DNA from: an uncultured Bacilli bacterium
Lineage (GTDB): Bacteria > Bacillota_I > Bacilli_A > RF39 > UBA660
NCBI GenBank assembly: GCA_934096405.1
Contig: CAKOLW010000002.1
Location: 16,754 to 80,753 of the forward strand
DNA length: 64,000 bases
Reading direction: 5' to 3'
The notes under the pieces: generated by a model
Databases searched by the model: none
The model's input: the letters and a program-made list of their open reading frames with translations, nothing else
What the model was told of the DNA's origin: nothing
Made by a program: the position numbers and the translations under genes
Part shown: piece after piece, positions 1,250-52,377 of the stretch
Layout: each line of letters opens with the position of its first letter
Numbering within the stretch: position 1 is the stretch's first letter

Positions 1250-2794
1250 TTAACAATTTGAGTTAACTTCATCCACTATATATGGATTAGTTGGTGTCCC
1301 TGTTCCAGTTACCAATACACAAGAAGCTAATGAAATTGCGGGACGCGCAACATAATATGCATAATCGGAACGACCATCACTTAAATTTCCTGAATTAGCA
1401 GTACCGCCAGCTAGCCATATTGTAGCCCCAGAGCCAGTCCATCTACGTGGAGATAGTAACCAAATCCAACTATTACCGGTTATTGAATTTCCTTCACTAT
1501 TTAAATAATACCATGCATAAGGACTAGTTAATTTTGTGCCAGTTTTTCCACCAGCAAAGACAAGTTCATCTGCAGTTGCTAATGCTATTGGATACTTAAG
1601 TTTACCATTTCCTCCACCTGTTGTGCTTGCACTAAATTTATCAGCAATTGCTTGCACACTTTCAAATAAACCACCACTTGGATTTGTTCCACATTTGTAT
1701 GATGGGGTTTTATTATCAACTAGTCTTGTGTAACTGCCATAATATACTACTTTACTAGTTACATATTCATACTTTGAGTCATAACTTCTATCATTACAAT
1801 ATATTGCAGTTTTACTTATATATTTATCATAATTTGTTAGTAATTTATTCTCGTACCATGTATCTATATATTTTTTAATTGTACTATCATTTTCATTTGT
1901 TCTATTATTATCTATAGACCCACTTGTTCCATACATATAGCCTTCATATACTAAATCATTATATTCAGTATTAAATTTTGTACTTCCTAGGTAACCTTTT
2001 TCTGTATCTGTACTTGTTCCAGAATATAGAAGTCTTACGCCTCCATCTTCATTAGTACGAATTATTCTCCAGTAAAATCCTCCAAAGTATACCCAGTTAT
2101 TTGTTGTATTTCCCGAATAATAATATACATCACTTCCATCTTCTGTTTTATTTGTTTTATATATTGTTCCTGTTGTTGTTTCTGTATTTGTTACACTAAA
2201 ATCTGTTCTTTCACTTACAGTTGGATTATCTCTTAGTATTGCACTTGAAACCAAAACTCCTGGTTCGTCTGTTCCTTCTTCAATGAATATCTTACCTGAT
2301 ACTTCTTTTTCCATATCAGCACTTTGGTCTACATCATCATCACTTATGTACTTCAATTCTAATGTATAATTATGTTTTGTATTAGAGGCTATTGCAACAC
2401 TATATTTAATAATTATATCTTCTAGTGTAGTTGACTTTGGTATATCTTCATAGTCAATCATACTATATCCACCATCTGTACTTGTTATTTTATATACTAA
2501 ATAGCCTTTAGTTACAAATGTGTTTATTAAATCTTTAAATACTAAATTATATTTATATTCATAGTTTGTTTTATTCTCTACACTAAATGTTTTAGTTATA
2601 CTCCATCCTGGTTCTATATTTGTTCCTTCTATATCATCCCCGTTGTCAAAAACTATTTTCAAATCATTTGTATCAACAGTTATTTTCTTTTTATCTCCTC
2701 TTACTATGGAACTAAAGTAAGCATAGGTTAAACCTAATAACAAAAATAATACTAAGCAAATTCCATATATTAAAAACTTCTTTTCTTTTGTCAC
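1250..2794 (-). CDS. Secreted protein, family member 1. It has a SipW-type signal peptide, a TasA/camelysin-like N-domain and a C-terminal lectin-like (DUF6273/DUF1566-like) domain.
   Basis: The ORF track gives 1250..2833 from a TTG that lies inside the promoter. The likely start is GTG 2794, 9 nt after AGGAGA. The N-terminus KKFLIYGICLVLFLLLGLTYAYFS matches the (T)(F/Y)AYFS SipW-class signal. Other motifs: IEPGWSITKTFSVEN; YYYSGNTTNNWVYFGGFYWRIIRTNEDG; YPIALATADELVFAGG; WIWLLSPRRW; YYVARPAISL. The protein ends in C-x21-C-COOH. Confidence 0.85.
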   Translation of the reverse strand: MTKEKKFLIYGICLVLFLLLGLTYAYFSSIVRGDKKKITVDTNDLKIVFDNGDDIEGTNIEPGWSITKTFSVENKTNYEYKYNLVFKDLINTFVTKGYLVYKITSTDGGYSMIDYEDIPKSTTLEDIIIKYSVAIASNTKHNYTLELKYISDDDVDQSADMEKEVSGKIFIEEGTDEPGVLVSSAILRDNPTVSERTDFSVTNTETTTGTIYKTNKTEDGSDVYYYSGNTTNNWVYFGGFYWRIIRTNEDGGVRLLYSGTSTDTEKGYLGSTKFNTEYNDLVYEGYMYGTSGSIDNNRTNENDSTIKKYIDTWYENKLLTNYDKYISKTAIYCNDRSYDSKYEYVTSKVVYYGSYTRLVDNKTPSYKCGTNPSGGLFESVQAIADKFSASTTGGGNGKLKYPIALATADELVFAGGKTGTKLTSPYAWYYLNSEGNSITGNSWIWLLSPRRWTGSGATIWLAGGTANSGNLSDGRSDYAYYVARPAISLASCVLVTGTGTPTNPYIVDEVNSNC

Positions 2795-2823
2795 CTTTAC
2801 AACTCTCCTATCTTTACATTTTA

Positions 2824-2852
2824 ATTTTATCAAAAAAAGTAGTTTGTTACAA
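2824..2852 (-). promoter_or_regulatory. Sigma-A-type promoter TTGTAA-N17-TAAAAT with an extended -10 TG, for family member 1
   Basis: The minus strand reads ..TTGTAAcaaactactttttttGaTAAAATtaaa. The same module occurs at 39771-39799 and a related one at 24973-25001. Confidence 0.55.
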
Positions 2853-2859
2853 CTACTTT
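2836..2859 (-). terminator. Terminator of ftsZ, overlapping the -35 of the next promoter
   Basis: The minus strand reads aaagtagttgtaacaaactacttt followed by a T7 run. Confidence 0.65.
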
Positions 2860-2871
2860 GAAAGTTTTATT

Positions 2872-3933
2872 TTAAATATCTCTATTTCTTAAAAAAGGAG
2901 GTAAATCATCATCGTCATCATCTACTAATTTTTTGTTATCAGTTGATGGAGTTGTGTATGTTTGATATAAAGGTTCTGTTTCATCTTCAAAACCAGTAGC
3001 TATAACTGTTACTATTGCTTCATCTGTTAAAGACTCATTTATTACAGCACCAAATATAATATTTATATCTGTATTTGCGGCTCCTCTAATTACTTCTGCT
3101 GCATCTTCTGCTTCAAATAAAGTTAATGAGTTTCCACCAGTTATATTTATAATACAATCTGTAGCTCCATTTATAGTTGTTTCTAGTAATGGACTTGATA
3201 CTGCTTCTTTAGCAGCTTCTATAGCTCTGTTTTCTCCAAATCCTACACCTATTCCAATTAGTGCTTGTCCTCTGTTTTCCATTATTGCTTTTACATCAGC
3301 AAAGTCTAGGTTAACTAATCCAGGAACACTAATTAAGTCAGATATAGATTGTACACCAAGTCTTAATACATTATCTACTTCTTTAAATGCATCAGTCATT
3401 GGAGTTGATTTATCTATTAAATCTCTTAATCTATCATTAGGAATTACTACATAAGTGTCTACATGCTTTTTTAATTCATCTAAACCTAATAAAGCATGAT
3501 CCATTCTTTTCTTTCCTTCAAACTTAAATGGTTTAGTTACAATTGCTACTGTAAGGCATCCTAACCCTTGTGCTATCTCAGCAATTACTGGTGCAGCTCC
3601 TGTACCTGTACCTCCACCAAGACCACAAGTAACAAATACCATGTCTGCCCCTCTTAAAGCATCTTCTATTTCATTTCTACTTTCTAAAGCAGCTTCTCTT
3701 CCAACTTCAGGGTCAGCTCCAGCACCAAGGCCATCAGTTATAGAAGCACCTATTTGTAACTTTGTTTCAGCTTTACTTGTGTTTAAAACTTGTAAATCCG
3801 TATTAGCAACTATAAATTCTACTCCTCTTAATCCAGATTCAATCATTCGGTTTACAGCATTACATCCGCCCCCACCTACACCTATAACTTTAATTTTTGC
3901 TATTTGTAACATTTCTAATGAATTTCCTTGCAT
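2872..3933 (-). CDS. ftsZ: Cell division GTPase FtsZ
   Basis: Motifs [26 protein letters not shown] and [16 protein letters not shown]. It has an acidic C-terminal tail with PPFLRNR. An AAGGAG RBS is present. Confidence 0.97.
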
Positions 3934-3945
3934 TTTACACTCTCC

Positions 3946-5184
3946 TTAATTATCAAAAAAGTAACTATATACTTTTCCTAATAAACTACCTTCATCTATT
4001 TTTTTCTTTTCTTTAAATATTTCTTCTTGTTCATAATCATCTATGGTAGTTGCTTTTTTATTTCTAAATTTTAATTTTTCATAATAGTATTTAATTATAC
4101 CAATAGCTGTACTATATTTATTATTTCTTACTCCTAGTATATTTAGTTTAGTATTTTCATAATTCTTGCCAAATACTTCATTGTATACTTTATTAAAGCC
4201 TTCTATCTCAGTACAACCTCCTGTAATGATTATATAACTAATTTCCTTTTTTGTTAAGAGATTTATTTGTTTTTTTGCAAGTTCTAATATTTCTCTTAAC
4301 CTAGAATAAACTATTTCACTTACTTCATATTGATTTATTTTAATATGTTCTTCAGATTTTGTCAAGCATTCTACAGTTTCATTTGTACTTGCATTAGCTT
4401 TATGTGCTAGGGCAAATGTTTCTTTTAATTTTTTACTTTCTTCTAAAGATAAATCATATATATAACTTATATCTCTATCTATGTTTTTACTACCTATATC
4501 TAATACTTCTGTACTAATTAGATTATCTTTATTTATTATACTTACTTCTGTTTTATCAGAGCCTATATTAATTATAGATACTATTTTATCTTTAAATTCA
4601 TTTTTTCTAAAAGCATAATAATCAGCTTGTCCTCCAAATGCTAAGTCTACTACCTTAACTCCTAATTTATCTAGTATTTCTATTAGACTAAATATATTCT
4701 TTTTAGGTATTACTCCTAATAGAGAATTTACTGATAATCTAGAAGCTTCAATGTTTTTAGGATCATTTACTATTTTGCTTTCATTAATTATGTAATCTAC
4801 TCCATTTACACTTACTAATTCTAAATTAGGACTAACCCTGTTATATACACTTGCTTGTAGTACATGAGTTACATCTTCTCCAGTTATTTTTTTGTCTTCT
4901 CTAGTGATTGTAATGTATCCTTCTCCTTTTATAAAATTAGCATAGTATGATGGACTTACTAATACAATCTTATTTATTTTAATTCCTAATACATCTTCAG
5001 TCTTTGTTAGAGCTTCTTTTATGCATTCTTTAGCTATTTCTTCATTAACTATTATTCCTTTTTTTATGCCTTTGCTTTTTATTTCAGTGCATGCCAAAAC
5101 AAATAATTCTTCATTATAAATTTCTCCAACAATTACTTTTACACTATTTGAACCTAAATCTAAACTTGTTATTATTTGTTTCAT
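3946..5184 (-). CDS. ftsA: Cell division protein FtsA
   Basis: Actin-like ATPase with SLDLGSNSVKVIVGE and a 412-aa length, lying immediately upstream of ftsZ. Confidence 0.9.
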   Translation of the reverse strand: MKQIITSLDLGSNSVKVIVGEIYNEELFVLACTEIKSKGIKKGIIVNEEIAKECIKEALTKTEDVLGIKINKIVLVSPSYYANFIKGEGYITITREDKKITGEDVTHVLQASVYNRVSPNLELVSVNGVDYIINESKIVNDPKNIEASRLSVNSLLGVIPKKNIFSLIEILDKLGVKVVDLAFGGQADYYAFRKNEFKDKIVSIINIGSDKTEVSIINKDNLISTEVLDIGSKNIDRDISYIYDLSLEESKKLKETFALAHKANASTNETVECLTKSEEHIKINQYEVSEIVYSRLREILELAKKQINLLTKKEISYIIITGGCTEIEGFNKVYNEVFGKNYENTKLNILGVRNNKYSTAIGIIKYYYEKLKFRNKKATTIDDYEQEEIFKEKKKIDEGSLLGKVYSYFFDN

Positions 5185-12100: not shown

Positions 12101-12177
<77 letters not shown>

Positions 12178-15767: not shown

Positions 15768-15938
15768 TTAATCAGCCTTTCTTTCTTTATGAACTGTTGT
15801 TTTATTACATCTAGTACAATGTTTTTTGATTTCTAATTTACCTTCAGTATTCTTTTTGTTTTTACTAGTTAAGTAATTAATTTCTTTACAAACTGTACAT
15901 TGAAGTGCAACGCCTTCTCTATTTTCTTTTTTAGCCAT
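15768..15938 (-). CDS. rpmG: 50S ribosomal protein L33
   Basis: [42 protein letters not shown] carries a C4 zinc ribbon. The start is ATG 15938, 9 nt after GGAGG; the track start at 15965 is too long. Confidence 0.9.
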
Positions 15939-15969
15939 TATATTCTGCCTCCTTTTTTTTAACAAGTAG

Positions 15970-15998
15970 ATTATAACAAATATTTTTGATGTTTACAA
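15970..15998 (-). promoter_or_regulatory. Promoter of the rpmG-efp operon (TTGTAA-N17-TATAAT)
   Basis: Consensus -10 hexamer, 17-nt spacer, about 30 nt upstream of the rpmG RBS. Confidence 0.6.
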
Positions 15999-16017
15999 GC
16001 AAATTAGTTTATTTTTA

Positions 16018-16103
16018 TTGATTTTAAGAAAATTTTATGGTATAAGTATAGATACAAGAGATGTAGTCCTGCTGACGTGACAGCGGGGGTGCATCTCTTT
16101 TTT
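16018..16103 (+). ncRNA. Candidate small RNA module, copy 1 (promoter plus a roughly 50-nt hairpin/terminator RNA)
   Basis: TTGATT-N17-TATAAG with an extended -10 TG. The RNA is then AGAGATGTA-GT-CCTGCTG-ACGTGA-CAGCGGG-GG-TGCATCTCT-T6. Its T-run overlaps the stop codon of the convergent 16102-16623 gene. Confidence 0.55.
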
Positions 16104-16623
16104 ATTTTCTTTTAAATACTTTATACATTTTATTTTTCTTTATTATTATTTTATTTACAAATAAAACATCAGGTCTTTTATATAATCTATTTAATTGATT
16201 AATTATTTCATTAAAATCAAGTTTAGACTTTGATAAATCTAATATAAAATTATTACTTTGTTTATTTTTTCCATACACTGCATGATATAACGCTTGATTA
16301 CTACTACTGGTTATTGTTTTTAAATCCCATTTTTCTTTATTCATCATATAATCTGGTGTTTTGATTTTTTTTGGATAATTTACTTTTGGCACTAATCTTA
16401 CTTCATAGCCAAATGTTTGACTTAACCAAAAAGCAATATTTAATTCGTCCCTACTATGGTCAATCTGTACATTTTTTCCATCTACAATATATATACTTTT
16501 ATCATGAACATAAAAATATTGTAACCTTACATTGAATATAATTTCATTATTTTTAAAATTAGCAGTAATATCAATATAATTTACAGTGTCTTGTAACACT
16601 TTATTCACAAATGTATTCTTCAC
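16102..16623 (-). CDS. Hypothetical protein with a PD-(D/E)xK-like motif. It resembles standalone nuclease/tRNase toxin domains of polymorphic-toxin or phage head-protein C-termini.
   Basis: 173 aa. The pattern ..GYEVRLVPKVNYPKKIKTPDYMMNKEKWDLKTITSSSNQALYHAVYGKNKQSNNFILDL fits hydrophobic strand - PD - x10 - D/E-L-K - conserved Q. The family assignment is from memory only. Confidence 0.6.
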   Translation of the reverse strand: MKNTFVNKVLQDTVNYIDITANFKNNEIIFNVRLQYFYVHDKSIYIVDGKNVQIDHSRDELNIAFWLSQTFGYEVRLVPKVNYPKKIKTPDYMMNKEKWDLKTITSSSNQALYHAVYGKNKQSNNFILDLSKSKLDFNEIINQLNRLYKRPDVLFVNKIIIKKNKMYKVFKRK

Positions 16624-16652
16624 CTCCAGTCCGTTAAAAATATAAAAAAATA

Positions 16653-16747
16653 TTGAATTTTAAACCTGATTGTGGTATAAATATAAGCACAAGGGTTGCC
16701 TTCGTGCTGACGTGACAGTGCGGACGCAACTCTTTTTATTTTTTTTT
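16653..16747 (+). ncRNA. Candidate small RNA module, copy 2
   Basis: TTGAAT-N17-TATAAA with TG. The hairpin is AGGGTTGC..CGTGCTG-ACGTGA-CAGTGCG..GCAACTCT followed by a T-run. The outer stem differs from copy 1 but remains complementary. Confidence 0.55.
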
Positions 16748-17257
16748 AAATACTTTATACATTTTATTTTTATTTATTATTATTTTATTTATGAATAAAA
16801 CATCGGGGCTTTTATATAATCTATTTAATTGATTAATTATTTCATTAAAATCAAGTTTAGACTTTGATAAATCCAATATAAAATTATTGCTTTGTTTATT
16901 TTTTCAATACACTGCATGATATAACGCTTGATTACTACTACTTGTTATTGTTTTTAAATCCCATTTTTCTCTATTAATGATGAAGTCAGGTGTATTAACA
17001 CCATAAGGAAAATTAACTTTAGGTACTAATATTACCTCATAACCAAATACCTGATTAATCCAATAAGCAATATTTAATTCTTCTCTAGAATAATCAAATT
17101 TGACATGCCTACCATCTACAATATATACACTTTTATCATGAACATAAAAATGTTGTAACCTTACATTGAATATAATTTCATTATTTTTAAAATTAGCGGT
17201 AATATCTATATAGTTGGCAGTGTCTTGTAACACTTTATTCACAAATGCATTCTTCAC
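16736..17257 (-). pseudogene. Tandem paralogue of the 16102-16623 gene, interrupted by a nonsense codon
   Basis: Collinear with the upstream copy. At 16904-16906 GGA (Gly) has become TGA (..ALYHAVY*KNKQSNNFILDL..). The remaining 3' part is nearly identical in DNA to copy 1. The ORF track shows only 16904..17311. Confidence 0.7.
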
Positions 17258-17342
17258 CTCCAGTCTGTTAAAAGATAAGCTTATATTAACATAATTAAGA
17301 AAGTATAACAAGCAAAATATTGAAAAAATACGAAAAAAACTA

Positions 17343-17432
17343 TTGAATTTTAAACTAAGTTATGGTATAAATATAGGTACAAGGGATGTAATCCTGCTGA
17401 AGTACCAGCGAGGTCACATCCCTTTTTATTTT
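17343..17432 (+). ncRNA. Candidate small RNA module, copy 3, directly upstream of the SDR gene
   Basis: TTGAAT-N17-TATAAA with TG. The hairpin is AGGGATGT-AAT-CCTGCTG-AAGTAC-CAGCGAGG-TC-ACATCCCT followed by T5. Confidence 0.55.
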
Positions 17433-17473
17433 TATTAATTTATGTTAAAATACTAATCGAGGTGAAATAAATT

Positions 17474-18208
17474 ATGAAAACAGTTTTAGTAACTGGATCT
17501 AGTAGTGGTCTTGGAAAAAGCATAATAGAAAAATATGCCAGTAATGGATATAATACAATAATTACCTATTTAACTCATGAAAATGAAGCATTAGAATTTA
17601 ATGAATATATAAAAAATAAATACAAAGTTAAAAGTATATGTGTTAAATTAGATATTAGTAAAGAAGATGATATACAAAATTTATATAAGTTGATACTTAA
17701 TGATTTTGGTAAAATTGATGTTTTAGTTAATAATGCTAGTATTTGTAATGATACTTTATTTGAAGATAAAACTAAAGATAACTTTATGAAAATAATTGAA
17801 GTAAATCTTGTTGGAACTTTTTTAATGAGTAAAACTTTTGGAAGACTTATGTATAACAATAAAAAAGGTTCAATTATCAATATAAGTAGTAATAATGGTA
17901 TTGATTCATATTATTCAGAATCACTGGACTACGATGCATCTAAAGCAGGCGTAATAAATTTAAGTCATAATTTAGCTAATGTTTTTTCTCCATATGTAAG
18001 GGTTAATACGGTATGTCCAGGATGGATTGAAACTCCTATGAATGAAAATATGAGTGATGAATTTAAAAATAAAGAAATCAATAAAATTTTACTTAAAAGG
18101 TTTGCTAATCCAGAAGAAATATCTAATTTAGTATATTTTTTATCTAGTGATGAAGCAAGTTATATAAATGATAGTGTTATTAAAATAGATGGTGGTAAAG
18201 TATGTTAA
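17474..18208 (+). CDS. Short-chain dehydrogenase/reductase (FabG-like)
   Basis: Motifs TGSSSGLGKS, NNAS and YDASKAG, with a 244-aa length. Confidence 0.88.
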   Translation: MKTVLVTGSSSGLGKSIIEKYASNGYNTIITYLTHENEALEFNEYIKNKYKVKSICVKLDISKEDDIQNLYKLILNDFGKIDVLVNNASICNDTLFEDKTKDNFMKIIEVNLVGTFLMSKTFGRLMYNNKKGSIINISSNNGIDSYYSESLDYDASKAGVINLSHNLANVFSPYVRVNTVCPGWIETPMNENMSDEFKNKEINKILLKRFANPEEISNLVYFLSSDEASYINDSVIKIDGGKVC

Positions 18209-20313: not shown

Positions 20314-22998
20314 CTATGCAGATAGAAGACTTTTTAATTCGACAACATTAGAAAACTCACTATAATACGTTGTTCCATCACTAATAGCGTATTTTCTTAC
20401 TTTAAAATATAAATGTCCACCACGTTTTACACTTACATAATTTTGGTTGTTTTCCCACTCTTCTTTTGTTATTGTTTTATTTAAAGTATATTTTCCATCT
20501 TCTGATGTTGAGCTATATACTTCTATACCTGTAGTATAATCTAAATTATCTATCAAAATTTGCATTCTTTGTTCATTTTCATCACCATTCTGACCAGATT
20601 CTGTTATAACTGGTGTTGAAAGGGAACTATCTACATCTAATACGTTTGAAAATTCACTCATATAATATGTATTTTCATCTATGGCAATATATTTTCTTAC
20701 TTTAAAATATAAGTGTTGGCCACTTGGTGCAGAGACTTCAAATGTATTGTTTTCATCTATGTCTTCTTTTTTTATTGTTTTATATAAAGTATATTCTCCG
20801 TCTTCAGATGTTGAACTATATACTTCAATACCTGTTGCTTCAGTTAATAAATTAACACATATTCTTAAAGCATTTCCTGCGTCAGAGCCTTCCCAACCTG
20901 CTTCAGTAATTGTTGGATGACCCATTTCTGCTTTCACTTCTGAATATTCACTATACACTTTATTTCCTTCGGTATTTATTATATATGCTCTTGCTGCATA
21001 TGTCTTTCCATAATTATCTTTTACATCAACTATAGTTTTGAATTCTTGAGAACCTTCAGAAGTTTTTATTAATGCATATGTTTCTCCTGTTTTTTCATAT
21101 ATTTCATAACCGTGTACTTCATTACCTGATTCACCATATATTTGACCATATAAAGTAATTTTATTGTCTTTTATATCAGAATTTATAAATGGTTGTGGTA
21201 CAGGATTTGTTAAAGTTAAGTAATTAGAATAATCACTATATACTTTTTCTCCTCTAGAATTTAATGCATAAACCCTTAATGTATATATTTCAGTTACACC
21301 TTTTTCAATAGTAACTTCTTTATTTAAAATTCCTTCATTTGTTTCAACTAAATTAGGTGCGTTATCAATTACTTTGTATAATTCATAACCGTCTATTAAA
21401 TCAGTTGCTCCTTCTTCTGAATAAGCTCCTTCATAATCAAATCTTAATATTGGTTTATCTATAGTACCTAAAGGATTTGATAATGTTGGTGTTGAAACTT
21501 TATTAACAAGTTCAACAAAATTTGAAAATTCACTATAATATGTTGTTCCATCACTAATAGCATATTTTCTTACCTTAAAATAAAGGTGTTCTCCTTTTTG
21601 TGCACTTACAGTATATGGATGACTTTCCCATTCTTCTTTAGTTATTGTATTTAATAAAGTATATTCTGCGTTTGCTGATGTTGAACTATATACTTCTATA
21701 CCACTGGTGTAATCTAAATTGTCTATTGTTAATATTATTGATTTTACGCCTTCACTTTCACCTTCACCTGTTACATTTAAAACTGGTGTTGAAAGAGAAT
21801 TATTTACATTTAATACATTTGAAAATTCACTAACATAATATGTATTTTCATCTATAGCAATATATTTTCTTACTTTATAATATAAGTGTTGGCCACTTGA
21901 TGCAGAAACTTCAAAAGTATTATTACTACTAATATCTTCTTTTTTTATTGTTTTATATAAAGTATATTCTCCATCTTCTGATGTTGAACTATATACTTCT
22001 ATACCTGTTGCTTCTGTTATTGAATTAATGCATAATAGAATTCCTTGAGGTTCATCGCTTCCACTGGCACCTGCTGTTGTAATTGTTGGATAACTCATTT
22101 CTGCTTTTACTTCTGAATAATCACTATATACTTTGTTTCCATCTGAATCTAATATGTAAGTTCTTGCTGCATATGTCTTTCCATAATTACCTACTAAGTC
22201 CACACTTGTTTGAAAGTTTTGATGAATATTATCTGTATGTATCACATTATAAGTATTACCAACTTTTTCATATACTTCATTTCCAGACATAGTACCGATT
22301 GCTTCTCCACCTATATTTATTTTATTGTTTTCAATATAAACAAACATATTTGGTGCGGCTATAGAATTTGTTAAAGTTAAGTAATCAGAATAATCACTAT
22401 ATACTTTTTCACCTTTTGCATTTATTGCATATACCCTTACTTTGTAAGATTTAGTAGTTCCAATACTAAGTGAAATTTCTTTGTTTAAAATACCTTCTTT
22501 TGTTTCAATTAATTGTAATTTATTAGCAATTAATTCATATAATTCGTAACCATTGATTAAATCAGTTGCTCCTTCTTTTGAATAAGCTTCTTCATAATCA
22601 AATCTTAATATAGGTTTATCTATAGTACCCAATGGATTAGATAATGTTGGTGTATCTAGATAAACATCATTATTTTTATAATTAATCTCAAAAGTTGTTG
22701 GTACATCTACTAATTCATTTGTTAATGCATTGAACCAAAGTCCTCTTGCATTTTTATAGTAAATAATCATATCTTCAAGATTATTACTATCTATTGTTTT
22801 AGCAGCTAACATAATAACATCAGTTGTTAAATAACCTTTATAGTTATTTGTTGTTTCTCTTGTAAACATACTTTTACCAATTATGTATGTTGAATTAGAA
22901 ATATCATTTGTATCTATTTCTCCAGCATTTAGATTATTAATATTTGCAAATGTAAATATTCCAATTAAGAGAACAATGCTACTTAATATTTTCTTCAT
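20314..22998 (-). CDS. Secreted repeat-rich surface protein (894 aa) made of FN3/Ig-like modules
   Basis: Signal peptide MKKILSSIVLLIGIFTFANINNLNA. The modules repeat motifs of the type GIEVYSSTSEDGEYTLYKTI..HLYFKVRKY..YYSEFSN. Confidence 0.85.
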   Translation of the reverse strand: MKKILSSIVLLIGIFTFANINNLNAGEIDTNDISNSTYIIGKSMFTRETTNNYKGYLTTDVIMLAAKTIDSNNLEDMIIYYKNARGLWFNALTNELVDVPTTFEINYKNNDVYLDTPTLSNPLGTIDKPILRFDYEEAYSKEGATDLINGYELYELIANKLQLIETKEGILNKEISLSIGTTKSYKVRVYAINAKGEKVYSDYSDYLTLTNSIAAPNMFVYIENNKINIGGEAIGTMSGNEVYEKVGNTYNVIHTDNIHQNFQTSVDLVGNYGKTYAARTYILDSDGNKVYSDYSEVKAEMSYPTITTAGASGSDEPQGILLCINSITEATGIEVYSSTSEDGEYTLYKTIKKEDISSNNTFEVSASSGQHLYYKVRKYIAIDENTYYVSEFSNVLNVNNSLSTPVLNVTGEGESEGVKSIILTIDNLDYTSGIEVYSSTSANAEYTLLNTITKEEWESHPYTVSAQKGEHLYFKVRKYAISDGTTYYSEFSNFVELVNKVSTPTLSNPLGTIDKPILRFDYEGAYSEEGATDLIDGYELYKVIDNAPNLVETNEGILNKEVTIEKGVTEIYTLRVYALNSRGEKVYSDYSNYLTLTNPVPQPFINSDIKDNKITLYGQIYGESGNEVHGYEIYEKTGETYALIKTSEGSQEFKTIVDVKDNYGKTYAARAYIINTEGNKVYSEYSEVKAEMGHPTITEAGWEGSDAGNALRICVNLLTEATGIEVYSSTSEDGEYTLYKTIKKEDIDENNTFEVSAPSGQHLYFKVRKYIAIDENTYYMSEFSNVLDVDSSLSTPVITESGQNGDENEQRMQILIDNLDYTTGIEVYSSTSEDGKYTLNKTITKEEWENNQNYVSVKRGGHLYFKVRKYAISDGTTYYSEFSNVVELKSLLSA
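20320..22662 (-). repeat. Internal tandem duplication of about 1.17 kb (about 390 aa) inside the surface-protein gene
   Basis: PTLSNPLGTIDKPILRFDYE(E/G)AYS(K/E)EGATDLI(N/D)GYELY.. starts at about aa 113 and again at about aa 503. The DNA segments at 22611-22660 and 21441-21490 are nearly identical. Confidence 0.85.
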
Positions 22999-30188: not shown

Positions 30189-30265
30189 GGGCTTGTAGCT
30201 CAGTTGGTTAGAGCGTGCGTCTGATAAGCGCAAGGTCGATGGTTCAAGTCCATCCAGGCCCACCA
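30189..30265 (+). tRNA. tRNA-Ile (anticodon GAT)
   Basis: GGGCTTGTAGCTCAGTTGGTTAGAGC.., anticodon loop CTGATAA, T-loop GGTTCAAGTCC, CCA encoded. Confidence 0.92.
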
Positions 30266-30272
30266 TTTTAAT

Positions 30273-30348
30273 GGCCGGTTGGTGAAATGGTTAACACACA
30301 CGCCTTTCACGCGTGCATTCACGGGTTCAAATCCCGTACCGGTCACCA
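30273..30348 (+). tRNA. tRNA-Glu (anticodon TTC)
   Basis: GGCCGGTTGGTGAAATGG.., anticodon stem CACGC/GCGTG with loop CTTTCAC, T-loop GGTTCAAATCC, CCA encoded. Confidence 0.92.
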
Positions 30349-51844: not shown

Positions 51845-51876
51845 TCGAAAAGTTCGAGTTATTATCAATTTGGTGC
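51845..51876. repeat. Right copy of the 32-bp direct repeat, overlapping the last 6 nt of tRNA-Thr
   Basis: See 49297-49328. Confidence 0.6.
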
Positions 51877-51946
51877 CGAAAGCAGGATTTGAACCCGCGA
51901 CCTACTGATTACGATTCAGTTGCTCTACCAACTGCGCTATTCCGGC
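51871..51946 (-). tRNA. tRNA-Thr (anticodon CGT)
   Basis: The reverse complement is GCCGGAATAGCGCAGTTGGTAGAGCAACTGAATCGTAATCAGTAGGTCGCGGGTTCAAATCCTGCTTTCGGCACCA. The acceptor is GCCGGAA/TTTCGGC. Confidence 0.88.
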
Positions 51947-52022: not shown

Positions 52023-52377
52023 TGGTGGAGCTGACGAGTATCGAGCTCGTGTCCAAAATATCTACTATACAAGCGTGTACAAGTTTAGTTGGTTTATTAT
52101 TTCAAAAAGTATAATGGATTGCCAACGTTCCTATACTTTTCTAAGTTTAGTAATAATTCTTTATTTAACCTAAACAATTAAATAATATAGTCTACTTTTA
52201 TGAGTCCTAGATCTTTTCTCGTAGACAAAGAAAAGTTAGAACCACCATACATCCTAATAACTAGGCAAAAGCAGGTGCAAAATTATAATCTTTTCCGATT
52301 ATTTTATTTTTGGATTTATAGTATCCCTACTACTTGCGCTCATACGTACAACTATCTTGTCGAAACATAACAGCCCC
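52023..52377 (-). ncRNA. ssrA: tmRNA (ssrA)
   Basis: The 5' end GGGGCTGTTATGTTTCGACAAGATAG parallels the B. subtilis tmRNA 5' end. The 3' end is GGACACGAGCTCGATACTCGTCAGCTCCACCA. The acceptor has the G3:U pair. The tag ORF at 52296-52261 reads GGA AAA GAT TAT AAT TTT GCA CCT GCT TTT GCC TAG, giving (A)GKDYNFAPAFA. Confidence 0.85.

Follow-up and report, generated by a model that had tools for sequence, protein, structure and literature searches.

A small-RNA module convergent on the 3' end of CdiA_C-type nuclease toxin genes in Bacilli chromosomes, phages and satellite phages: a candidate RNA antidote

Conflict among bacteria and phages revolves in large part around polymorphic toxins and the immunity proteins paired with them. 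Among Gram-positive type I toxin-antitoxin (TA) systems, convergent antitoxin RNAs overlapping the toxin 3' end are represented by txpA/RatA, bsrG/SR4 and yonT/SR6, as well as by fst/RNA II of pAD1, where the terminator is shared; type I toxins are usually hydrophobic or membrane peptides of <60 amino acids (aa), although RalR/RalA and SymE/SymR have enzymatic toxins. The Pfam family CdiA_C (PF18451), a member of the PD-(D/E)XK clan, was built on the CdiA-CT tRNase of Burkholderia pseudomallei 1026b (Bp1026b) (PMC9990079). MuF fusions are polymorphic toxins of temperate phages, for which delivery as protein has been proposed and a small downstream open reading frame (ORF) is assumed to provide immunity (Jamet et al., 2017; PMC5576092). 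Here, we describe a locus in a 64,000-nucleotide (nt) stretch of DNA from an uncultured Bacilli bacterium (contig CAKOLW010000002.1; the whole stretch is referred to below as the window, and positions are those of the window unless another locus is named), in which two copies of a CdiA_C-type toxin gene, A and A', are interleaved with three predicted small-RNA modules. Comparison with related chromosomal, phage and satellite-phage loci suggests that the small RNA is very probably the dedicated antidote of the toxin, in place of an immunity or antitoxin protein.

The locus is bounded by rpmG-efp (minus strand, ending at 15965) and by an SDR/aminotransferase operon (plus strand, from 17474). Between them, in a region of 24% G+C, lie two paralogous minus-strand genes and three plus-strand copies of a ~114-nt module (Table 1). 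The ORF list runs gene A to 16623, and homologues are called at 168 aa. Genes A and A' are ~90% identical over the first 300 nt compared; A' carries a single in-frame TGA (16904-16906) where A has GGA. Because the genome reads the standard code, with TGA terminating five of 52 long ORFs and TGG used 110 times, this TGA is a true nonsense mutation; a code reading TGA as Trp, which would rescue A', was thereby ruled out. The A' ortholog in a related metagenome-assembled genome (MAG) is intact (P0002). In modules 1 and 2, the U-run extends over the stop codon of A and of A', respectively, and no gene 3' end lies behind the U-run of module 3.

Over residues 88-164, the gene A protein matches CdiA_C (E 1.2e-14), scoring 54.7 bits where the cut-off is 26.6, and PF18451 is carried by all homologues. 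Its AlphaFold2 model has a predicted local distance difference test score (pLDDT) of 91 and a predicted template modeling score (pTM) of 0.86, and a Foldseek search against the PDB returned the Bp1026b CdiA-CT tRNase (4g6v_A) as the sole significant match (E 2.5e-5, probability 1.0). The direct sequence match to 4g6v is weak (E 0.58), a direct PDB sequence search gave noise only, and NCBIfam and PADLOC searches with the protein gave no match. A first-pass annotation, made from the sequence by a model without database searches, had described a free-standing nuclease- or tRNase-like toxin domain and suggested a structure prediction; both family and predicted fold bear this description out. The PD-x10-(D/E)LK motif it had read is present as PD...DLK, but the spacing is eight residues rather than ten (PD-x8-DLK). 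Conserved in the family are E55, P85-D86, D95-L96-K97 and Q117-x-N119-N120, with E55, D86, D95 and K97 invariant or nearly so. The label of a PD-(D/E)XK CdiA_C-type, Bp1026b-like toxin domain, assigned by homology, appears well founded; tRNA cleavage and growth inhibition by the gene A protein would be expected from its family membership. A full HMMER search yielded 1376 cluster representatives of the toxin domain. The whole 168-aa unit occurs either alone, in proteins of ~165-190 aa, or as the C-terminus of 400-670-aa proteins whose N-termini are Phage_Mu_F, Phage_min_cap2 or phage portal domains, and most relatives are such fusions. The window copies are free-standing, 168 aa long and without a delivery-protein N-terminus.

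Each module comprises TTGAWT, 17 nt ending in TGg, TATAAR and, ~9 nt further on, an 18-19 bp hairpin followed by a U-run. The three copies share 66-75% pairwise identity, and their hairpins are two-tiered, with one mid-stem mismatch (G/G in small RNA 1), a 6-nt loop (ACGUGA in small RNA 1) and many G.U pairs. Alignment and pattern scans recovered the interleaving of three plus-strand promoter-plus-hairpin units with an intact and a nonsense toxin gene that had first been noticed in the sequence. The near-consensus extended -10 promoter attributed to each unit is kept as a site in all three, but its -10 box ends in A or G rather than T, which is why a simple promoter scanner missed the sites. 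The site of small RNA 1 scores 10.5 with its 17-nt spacer; when these AT-rich loci are divided into 40-nt windows, only 2.3% hold a promoter-like site that strong. A 23-nt pattern covering the -10 region and the start of the hairpin matched the three modules without mismatch, against 0.05 matches expected by chance, and a hairpin-core pattern gave three matches against 0.00 expected. One additional match of the 23-nt pattern, with three mismatches (22857-22879, minus strand), lies within coding sequence, has no hairpin and looks like chance.

Modules 1, 2 and 3 fold at -29.0, -23.9 and -22.4 kcal/mol, respectively (z -7.0, -4.3 and -5.0 against shuffles). Small RNAs 1 and 2 contain four G.U pairs each, and the opposite (gene) strand folds at only -18 for the former and at -13.9 for the latter. 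The observation that the outer stems differ between copies yet stay paired was confirmed on a larger set: among 11 distinct copies of the window lineage, 96.5% of the cells are paired and four pairs are changed on both sides. In a shuffle control, none of 500 shuffles reached this paired fraction and one of 500 reached the covariation score. Compared with its relatives, small RNA 3 shows a compensatory A-U to G-C change at pair 8:45. Rfam 15 gave no match at gathering scores in the window and none on the phage modules; in E-value mode, positions 15900-17500 produced chance-level matches only (E>1). An intrinsic-terminator scanner reported nothing at the window modules.

The association of the module with the toxin domain extends far beyond the window. 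Each relative that could be inspected, from ~10 metagenome lineages, 39 viral contigs and three Streptococcus phages (29-53% aa identity), shows a convergent promoter-like site, a long hairpin and a U-run ending on the toxin stop codon. The window locus is syntenic in related gut MAGs, with one or two toxin genes and three to five RNA modules, including two to three tandem orphan modules ahead of the SDR gene (L001, L002). Free-standing homologues with 29-44% identity occur in unrelated neighborhoods, next to rpsU, rpmE, a PNP gene or type II secretion system genes, and a TTGACA/TTGCCT-N17-TATAAT-like site, with its long hairpin and U-run, faces the 3' end of every one of them. In IMG/VR, the module was present at 39 of 39 testable loci, nearly all of them with long ORFs of the MuF type (at least 300 aa in 38), and it stands at the toxin 3' end in Streptococcus phages IPP24, Javan573 and P9. 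The convergent placement with a U-tail over the stop codon, first read from the window modules, recurs in the relatives, and the proposed search of related genomes found the module linked to the toxin domain in every locus examined. A view of this layout as peculiar to free-standing genes is not supported: the same cassette is found mostly on phage MuF toxins.

Promoter-like sites in the relatives score 10.5-12.5, nearly always with a 17-nt spacer, and a strong site stands at the equivalent place in 10 of 10 non-window loci scanned, despite unrelated hairpin sequences. When a promoter score >=10.5, a fold of <=-17 kcal/mol and a U-run were demanded within 110 nt, 22 of 192 ORF 3' ends in 24 sequences were positive, and all 22 belonged to toxin genes; the module is absent from ~165 other ORF ends under the same criteria. 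The co-occurrence of toxin domain and RNA module is strict and specific. Across loci, the hairpins comprise 16-23 bp, including 2-5 G.U pairs each, with folding energies of -18 to -38 kcal/mol. For 12 of 13 hairpins, the G.U pairs make the gene strand fold less stably, mostly by a margin of 3-17 kcal/mol, and the U-run is present on the small-RNA strand only. This asymmetry indicates that the hairpin structure is selected on the small-RNA strand, and it would allow sense transcription of late operons in phages to pass through the hairpin.

The terminal codons of the toxin gene themselves meet the module. A final ...K-R-K-stop, conserved in the family (AAAAGAAAATAA), is the reverse complement of the small-RNA terminator U-tract (TTATTTTCTTTT), so that protein C-terminus and terminator constrain each other. 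The overlap lies at 16098-16113 in the window and at the equivalent 3' ends in most loci; L012 and L014, in which the ORF continues through the hairpin, are exceptions.

A protein that could play the part of the assumed immunity factor was sought around the toxin genes. In the window, no ORF lies between the toxin genes and their neighbors; neighboring genes differ between lineages, and no conserved neighbor of the toxin gene was found. In three streptococcal phages, the ORFs that directly follow the MuF toxin gene fall into three unrelated PHROG families, and a conserved downstream immunity protein in phages was rejected on this ground. The absence of an adjoining antitoxin or immunity ORF, first remarked in the window, holds for the neighborhoods of relatives and for these three phages as well.

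The module also persists where the toxin is damaged or missing. In the window, module 2 remains intact beside the nonsense-mutated A'. In another lineage (L008), a second, divergent toxin copy (34% identity; 4632-4851) has been truncated to a frameshifted C-terminal remnant, and the remnant's own small-RNA module (4860-4935) has survived intact, its loop bearing an additional mini-hairpin. Orphan modules, of which module 3 is an example, can form tandem arrays of two to three units, sometimes with different hairpins. A scan with the streptococcal apical element found 35 viral contigs: 29 with an adjacent toxin, five without a toxin match and one that ends before the toxin position. Two of the five toxin-less loci (L101, L110) have tandem modules with different hairpins and separate promoters, and these toxin-less loci resemble integrase/DUF1492 islands. 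Of 51 matches among GenBank phage records, ~15 come from "Streptococcus satellite phages" 8.6-14 kb in length; one of these, satellite Javan267 (L113), contains two tandem modules and no toxin domain. Toxin-less satellites and islands carry one to three orphan modules near the end of the element, and orphan copies still show compensatory stem changes. Satellites may carry antidotes to a toxin of full-size phages. Mimicry of a phage pac or cos site was considered as an explanation for the satellite copies and rejected: the element follows portal and MuF genes rather than terS, is found in non-phage chromosomal loci and keeps its promoter.

Conservation of the RNA points the same way as its persistence. 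The toxin domains of P9 and Javan345 are 50% (aa) and 59% (nt) identical, whereas the apical ~46 nt of their RNAs are ~93% identical and the basal stems differ. Window module 3 and the hairpin of L038, a phage MuF toxin locus, are 75% identical, with the toxin identity at 47% in global alignment and 53% in the best local segment. The apical sequence of the RNA is far better conserved than the toxin gene.

Several observations on the distribution and surroundings of the cassette may be added. Fusions of the toxin to MuF (minor head) proteins occur in S. pyogenes prophages 315.6, Manfredo, NZ131, MGAS5005 and SSI-1, and also in prophages of S. equi (P9), S. agalactiae, S. dysgalactiae, S. suis, S. 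pneumoniae (IPP24) and S. oralis. The convergent module lies 3' of the streptococcal MuF toxin at L028 2990-3090, L029 2985-3090 and L030 2975-3075 (minus). The set examined comprises 45 phage records, and in some of them an annotated "hypothetical protein" covers part of the module. More remote versions of the toxin domain include a protein of "bajarodcaudo virus 4" annotated "CDI toxin" (PQ006095.1 3944-4348) and a capsid maturation protease/MuF-like fusion of Mycobacterium phage MalagasyRose (NC_073465.1 6084-6404). In three unrelated lineages, free-standing toxin genes adjoin genes for small ribosomal proteins (L33, S21, L31), which may be coincidence or an insertion preference. Near rpsU in L008, in an intergenic-rich region, a free-standing PBECR3 (PF18812) nuclease-toxin-like gene (2456-3025) lies ~1 kb from the CdiA_C gene.

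In the window itself, the divergent promoter with overlapping -35 boxes that had been proposed for the gene to the left of each module did not hold up: a minus-strand promoter scan gave no convincing match, the best candidate scoring 9.5 for A' and none reaching 8.5 for A. The terminator of small RNA 3 ends ~45 nt ahead of the SDR gene start, and no obvious separate promoter is seen in between (17424-17476); the SDR/aminotransferase operon may therefore need read-through from the small-RNA promoter. Elsewhere, the window contains a tmRNA gene (52023-52377, minus strand) and four tRNA genes (Arg-TCT, Ile-GAT, Glu-TTC and Thr-CGT, at 12101-12177, 30189-30348 and 51871-51946), ordinary chromosomal content for a Bacilli-class gut bacterium of ~25% G+C.

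Table 1. Coordinates of toxin genes, predicted small-RNA modules and selected neighbors.
Feature	Sequence	Position	Strand	Description
Module 1	window	16009-16122	+	direct copy of ~114-nt unit
Promoter-like site, small RNA 1	window	16018-16046	+	TTGATT 16018-23, 17 nt, TGg-TATAAG 16041-46
Small RNA 1	window	16053-16105	+	predicted ~50 nt; hairpin 16056-16099; T-run from 16098
Gene A	window	16102-16608	-	intact free-standing toxin domain, 168 aa from second GTG; stop codon 16102-16104
Module 2	window	16644-16757	+	direct copy of ~114-nt unit
Promoter-like site, small RNA 2	window	16653-16681	+	TTGAAT 16653-58, 17 nt, TGg-TATAAA 16676-81
Small RNA 2	window	16688-16740	+	hairpin 16691-16734; U-run over gene A' stop codon
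Gene A'	window	16736-17242	-	second toxin-gene copy, one nonsense codon, otherwise in frame; stop codon 16736-16738
Module 3	window	17334-17447	+	direct copy of ~114-nt unit
Promoter-like site, small RNA 3	window	17343-17371	+	TTGAAT 17343-48, 17 nt, TGg-TATAAA 17366-71
Small RNA 3	window	17378-17430	+	orphan copy; hairpin 17381-17424, AAGUAC loop; 45 nt upstream of SDR gene (17474)
Orphan module(s), satellite or island	L113	10265-10466		
Orphan module(s), satellite or island	L110	8440-8640		
Orphan module(s), satellite or island	L101	1-200		
Orphan module(s), satellite or island	L114	7326-7424		
rpmG	window	15768-15965		ribosomal neighbor
rpsU	L008	3607-3801		ribosomal neighbor
rpmE	L014	756-968		ribosomal neighbor

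How might such an RNA act as an antidote? The cassette would unite a Bp1026b-type PD-(D/E)XK tRNase toxin domain with a dedicated 50-90 nt RNA. A strong sigma-70-type promoter would drive this RNA from the opposite strand, and its 3' end would be formed by a long, G.U-rich terminator hairpin reaching up to the toxin stop codon. We put forward tentatively that the hairpin RNA neutralizes the toxin protein directly, working in trans as a pseudo-substrate or inhibitor of an enzyme that recognizes structured RNA helices. Because the enzyme of Bp1026b type cleaves tRNA (PMC9990079), an RNA helix carrying a 3' tail would be a plausible ligand, and only immunity at the protein level could counter a toxin that arrives as protein, the route suggested for MuF toxins. 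In a phage or lysogen, the RNA would shield the cell against MuF-borne toxin, whether its own or incoming; an orphan RNA copy in a chromosome or satellite phage would resemble an orphan immunity gene; and a free-standing toxin gene with its RNA, as in the window, would constitute a TA module. A broader and more speculative possibility is that structured RNA is the immunity factor for head-carried MuF-CdiA_C toxins, that orphan "RNA immunity genes" are kept singly or in arrays of differing specificity, and that the free-standing pair represents a new class of RNA-protein TA system.

Between neutralization at the protein level and antisense control, the former is slightly favored. Orphan and satellite-borne copies argue for an antidote that acts in trans, as do arrays and retention beside dead toxin genes; conservation of the RNA, the very stable hairpin, the minimal coding overlap and the lack of complementarity to the ribosome-binding site (RBS) lean in the same direction. 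Searches for complementarity between the RNA and the toxin ribosome-binding region or 5' untranslated region (UTR) returned nothing beyond shuffled controls (z -1.5 to +1.5). The same kind of comparison led us to reject a par/fst-like second interaction site at the toxin 5' UTR or RBS, as well as a hok-like structure in which the C-rich sense 3' UTR would fold back onto the Shine-Dalgarno sequence. An RNA-guided nuclease was likewise rejected, as the RNA has almost no unstructured or variable segment.

Other points weigh against direct neutralization. The promoters are predictions, and in the window lineage the -10 box lacks its final T. Hairpin sequences are very different between toxin subfamilies and share no universal motif. 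Contact between RNA and protein would be deduced from the orphan and satellite copies and from RNA conservation, and the latter could stem from recent horizontal exchange or from a need to match an RNA target. RNA immunity to a polymorphic toxin would, to our knowledge, be without precedent. Finally, the invariant convergent, stop-abutting position is what a cis-antisense regulator would have; direct neutralization has to explain it separately, by tight cassette linkage together with the need not to terminate the sense operon, for which the G.U asymmetry provides. From sequence comparison, we infer transcription of the small RNA, toxicity of the protein, and neutralization of the toxin along with its level.

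The best-surviving alternative, which we regard as possible but rather doubtful, is a type-I-like antisense mechanism, in which the RNA, either in cis or (for orphans acting on related phage transcripts) in trans, pairs with the toxin mRNA at its 3' end and causes RNase III-dependent decay or blocked expression, as in txpA/RatA, bsrG/SR4 and fst/RNA II. Being always convergent and ending on the toxin stop codon, the RNA is fully complementary to any 3' UTR of the toxin mRNA. The predicted small-RNA promoter is strong and predicted toxin promoters are weak, and the mid-stem mismatch and 4-10 nt loops are like those of antisense-RNA stem-loops. Gram-positive precedents are good, and nuclease toxins do occur in type I systems, e.g., RalR/RalA (PMC4041452). 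A trans RNA target would also demand conservation of the orphan sequences. Furthermore, Spy_sRNA800369 of S. pyogenes SF370, a primary RNA validated by Northern blot, lies antisense to the SPy_0978 3' UTR in prophage 370.3, and its coverage is the highest among the antisense RNAs listed (Le Rhun et al.; PMC4829319). It lies ~20.5 kb from the integrase, and the module lies ~19-22 kb into related Javan prophage records; a further RNA, Spy_sRNA1786666, maps to the end of the 370.4 island (PMC4829319). Both could be members of the module class, although the match is unconfirmed, and a link of the module to these two RNAs or to the SR11733xx candidates was not established.

Against an antisense role, the overlap is limited to the post-stop region and one to four codons, there is neither a second site at the RBS nor a 3'-5' fold-back, and the RNA is locked in its very stable hairpin. 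In phages, the target would sit within a polycistronic late mRNA, so that cleavage would also strike capsid genes. Antisense control would give no protection against a toxin delivered as protein, and copies in toxin-less satellites or beside dead toxin genes have no cis target. The toxin, moreover, is not a small hydrophobic peptide.

It is unlikely that the module is instead a regulatory or insulating element without an antidote role, whether by transcriptional interference, by blocking antisense read-in or by acting on other host or phage targets while hitch-hiking with the toxin. Phage morons often have their own promoter and terminator, the hairpin with its U-run has the shape of a bona fide terminator, and module 3 could feed the SDR operon by read-through. 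However, this explanation leaves unaccounted for a 100% link to a single toxin domain in unrelated settings, the absence from other gene ends, the retention after toxin decay and the conservation of the apical element; in addition, the promoter fires into its own terminator, so that the main predicted product is the hairpin RNA itself. That the hairpins are merely shared or bidirectional terminators, with promoter boxes arising by chance in AT-rich DNA and spread by tandem duplication, is very improbable: a G+C content of 24%, the 29 promoter-like sites (21 expected) in a generic scan and the paralogy of modules 1-3 as copies of one duplicated unit speak for it, but the rarity of such strong sites set against their recurrence at the same place in every non-window locus scanned, the weaker gene-strand hairpin without a U-run (12 of 13 cases), which shows that the hairpins are not bidirectional terminators, and the lack of a plus-strand gene upstream of module 1 to terminate largely refute it.

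If the antidote reading is true, RNA as the constant partner of a widespread nuclease toxin domain would change the annotation of such loci, explain toxin genes that seem to lack immunity, add a class of RNA-based immunity or antitoxin with an enzyme as toxin, and suggest that satellite phages carry antidotes to phage-borne toxins. The module is present in prophages of Streptococcus pyogenes, S. pneumoniae, S. agalactiae, S. suis and S. equi, and its role is testable in streptococcal lysogens. It also provides a search rule for more such RNAs: a convergent consensus promoter with an asymmetric, G.U-rich hairpin on a stop codon.

In comparison with described systems, the toxin domain belongs to the same family and fold as CdiA-CT(II) of Bp1026b, which is paired with CdiI (PF18451, PDB 4G6V), and, as in MuF polymorphic toxins, most relatives are C-terminal domains of MuF, minor-capsid or portal proteins (PMC5576092). 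Like both, the partner gene lies directly 3' of the toxin domain and moves with it as a cassette, and orphan partners exist. Unlike both, the partner here is a hairpin RNA on the opposite strand rather than a small immunity protein, and no conserved downstream ORF is present; unlike the MuF toxins, the window copies are free-standing chromosomal genes between rpmG-efp and the SDR gene. With type I TA systems, the cassette shares a convergent small RNA with its own strong (here predicted) promoter that overlaps the toxin 3' end and ends in a terminator; it also shares the lack of a protein antitoxin and a frequent prophage location. The predicted RNA is antisense to the toxin stop codon and the sequence just 3' of it, and would be complementary to a toxin mRNA that reaches through this region. 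The cassette differs from type I systems in its toxin, a soluble alpha/beta nuclease domain of 168 aa that is often embedded in a phage structural protein of 400-670 aa (RalR and SymE being known exceptions to the small-peptide rule), in an overlap almost wholly outside the coding region, in the lack of RBS complementarity, and in its orphan, tandem and satellite-borne RNA copies. Type III systems (ToxIN, CptIN, TenpIN) offer a parallel in that an RNA would neutralize an RNA-cleaving toxin directly, in their tandem RNA units and in their links to phage-host conflict. Here, however, there are no co-transcribed direct repeats upstream of the toxin gene that the toxin processes; every unit lies on the opposite strand with a promoter and a terminator to itself, and the toxin has a PD-(D/E)XK fold rather than a ToxN/AbiQ-like one, with no PADLOC match. 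The cassette thus fails defining features of polymorphic toxin-immunity pairs, for want of an immunity protein, and of type I and type III TA systems alike. Full-text literature searches turned up no account of an RNA partner for the CdiA_C toxin family, in agreement with the first impression that the pairing is undescribed. Module and toxin are best placed as a variant of the RNA antitoxins, with a substantial chance that they represent a new concept, RNA immunity to a phage-delivered polymorphic toxin.

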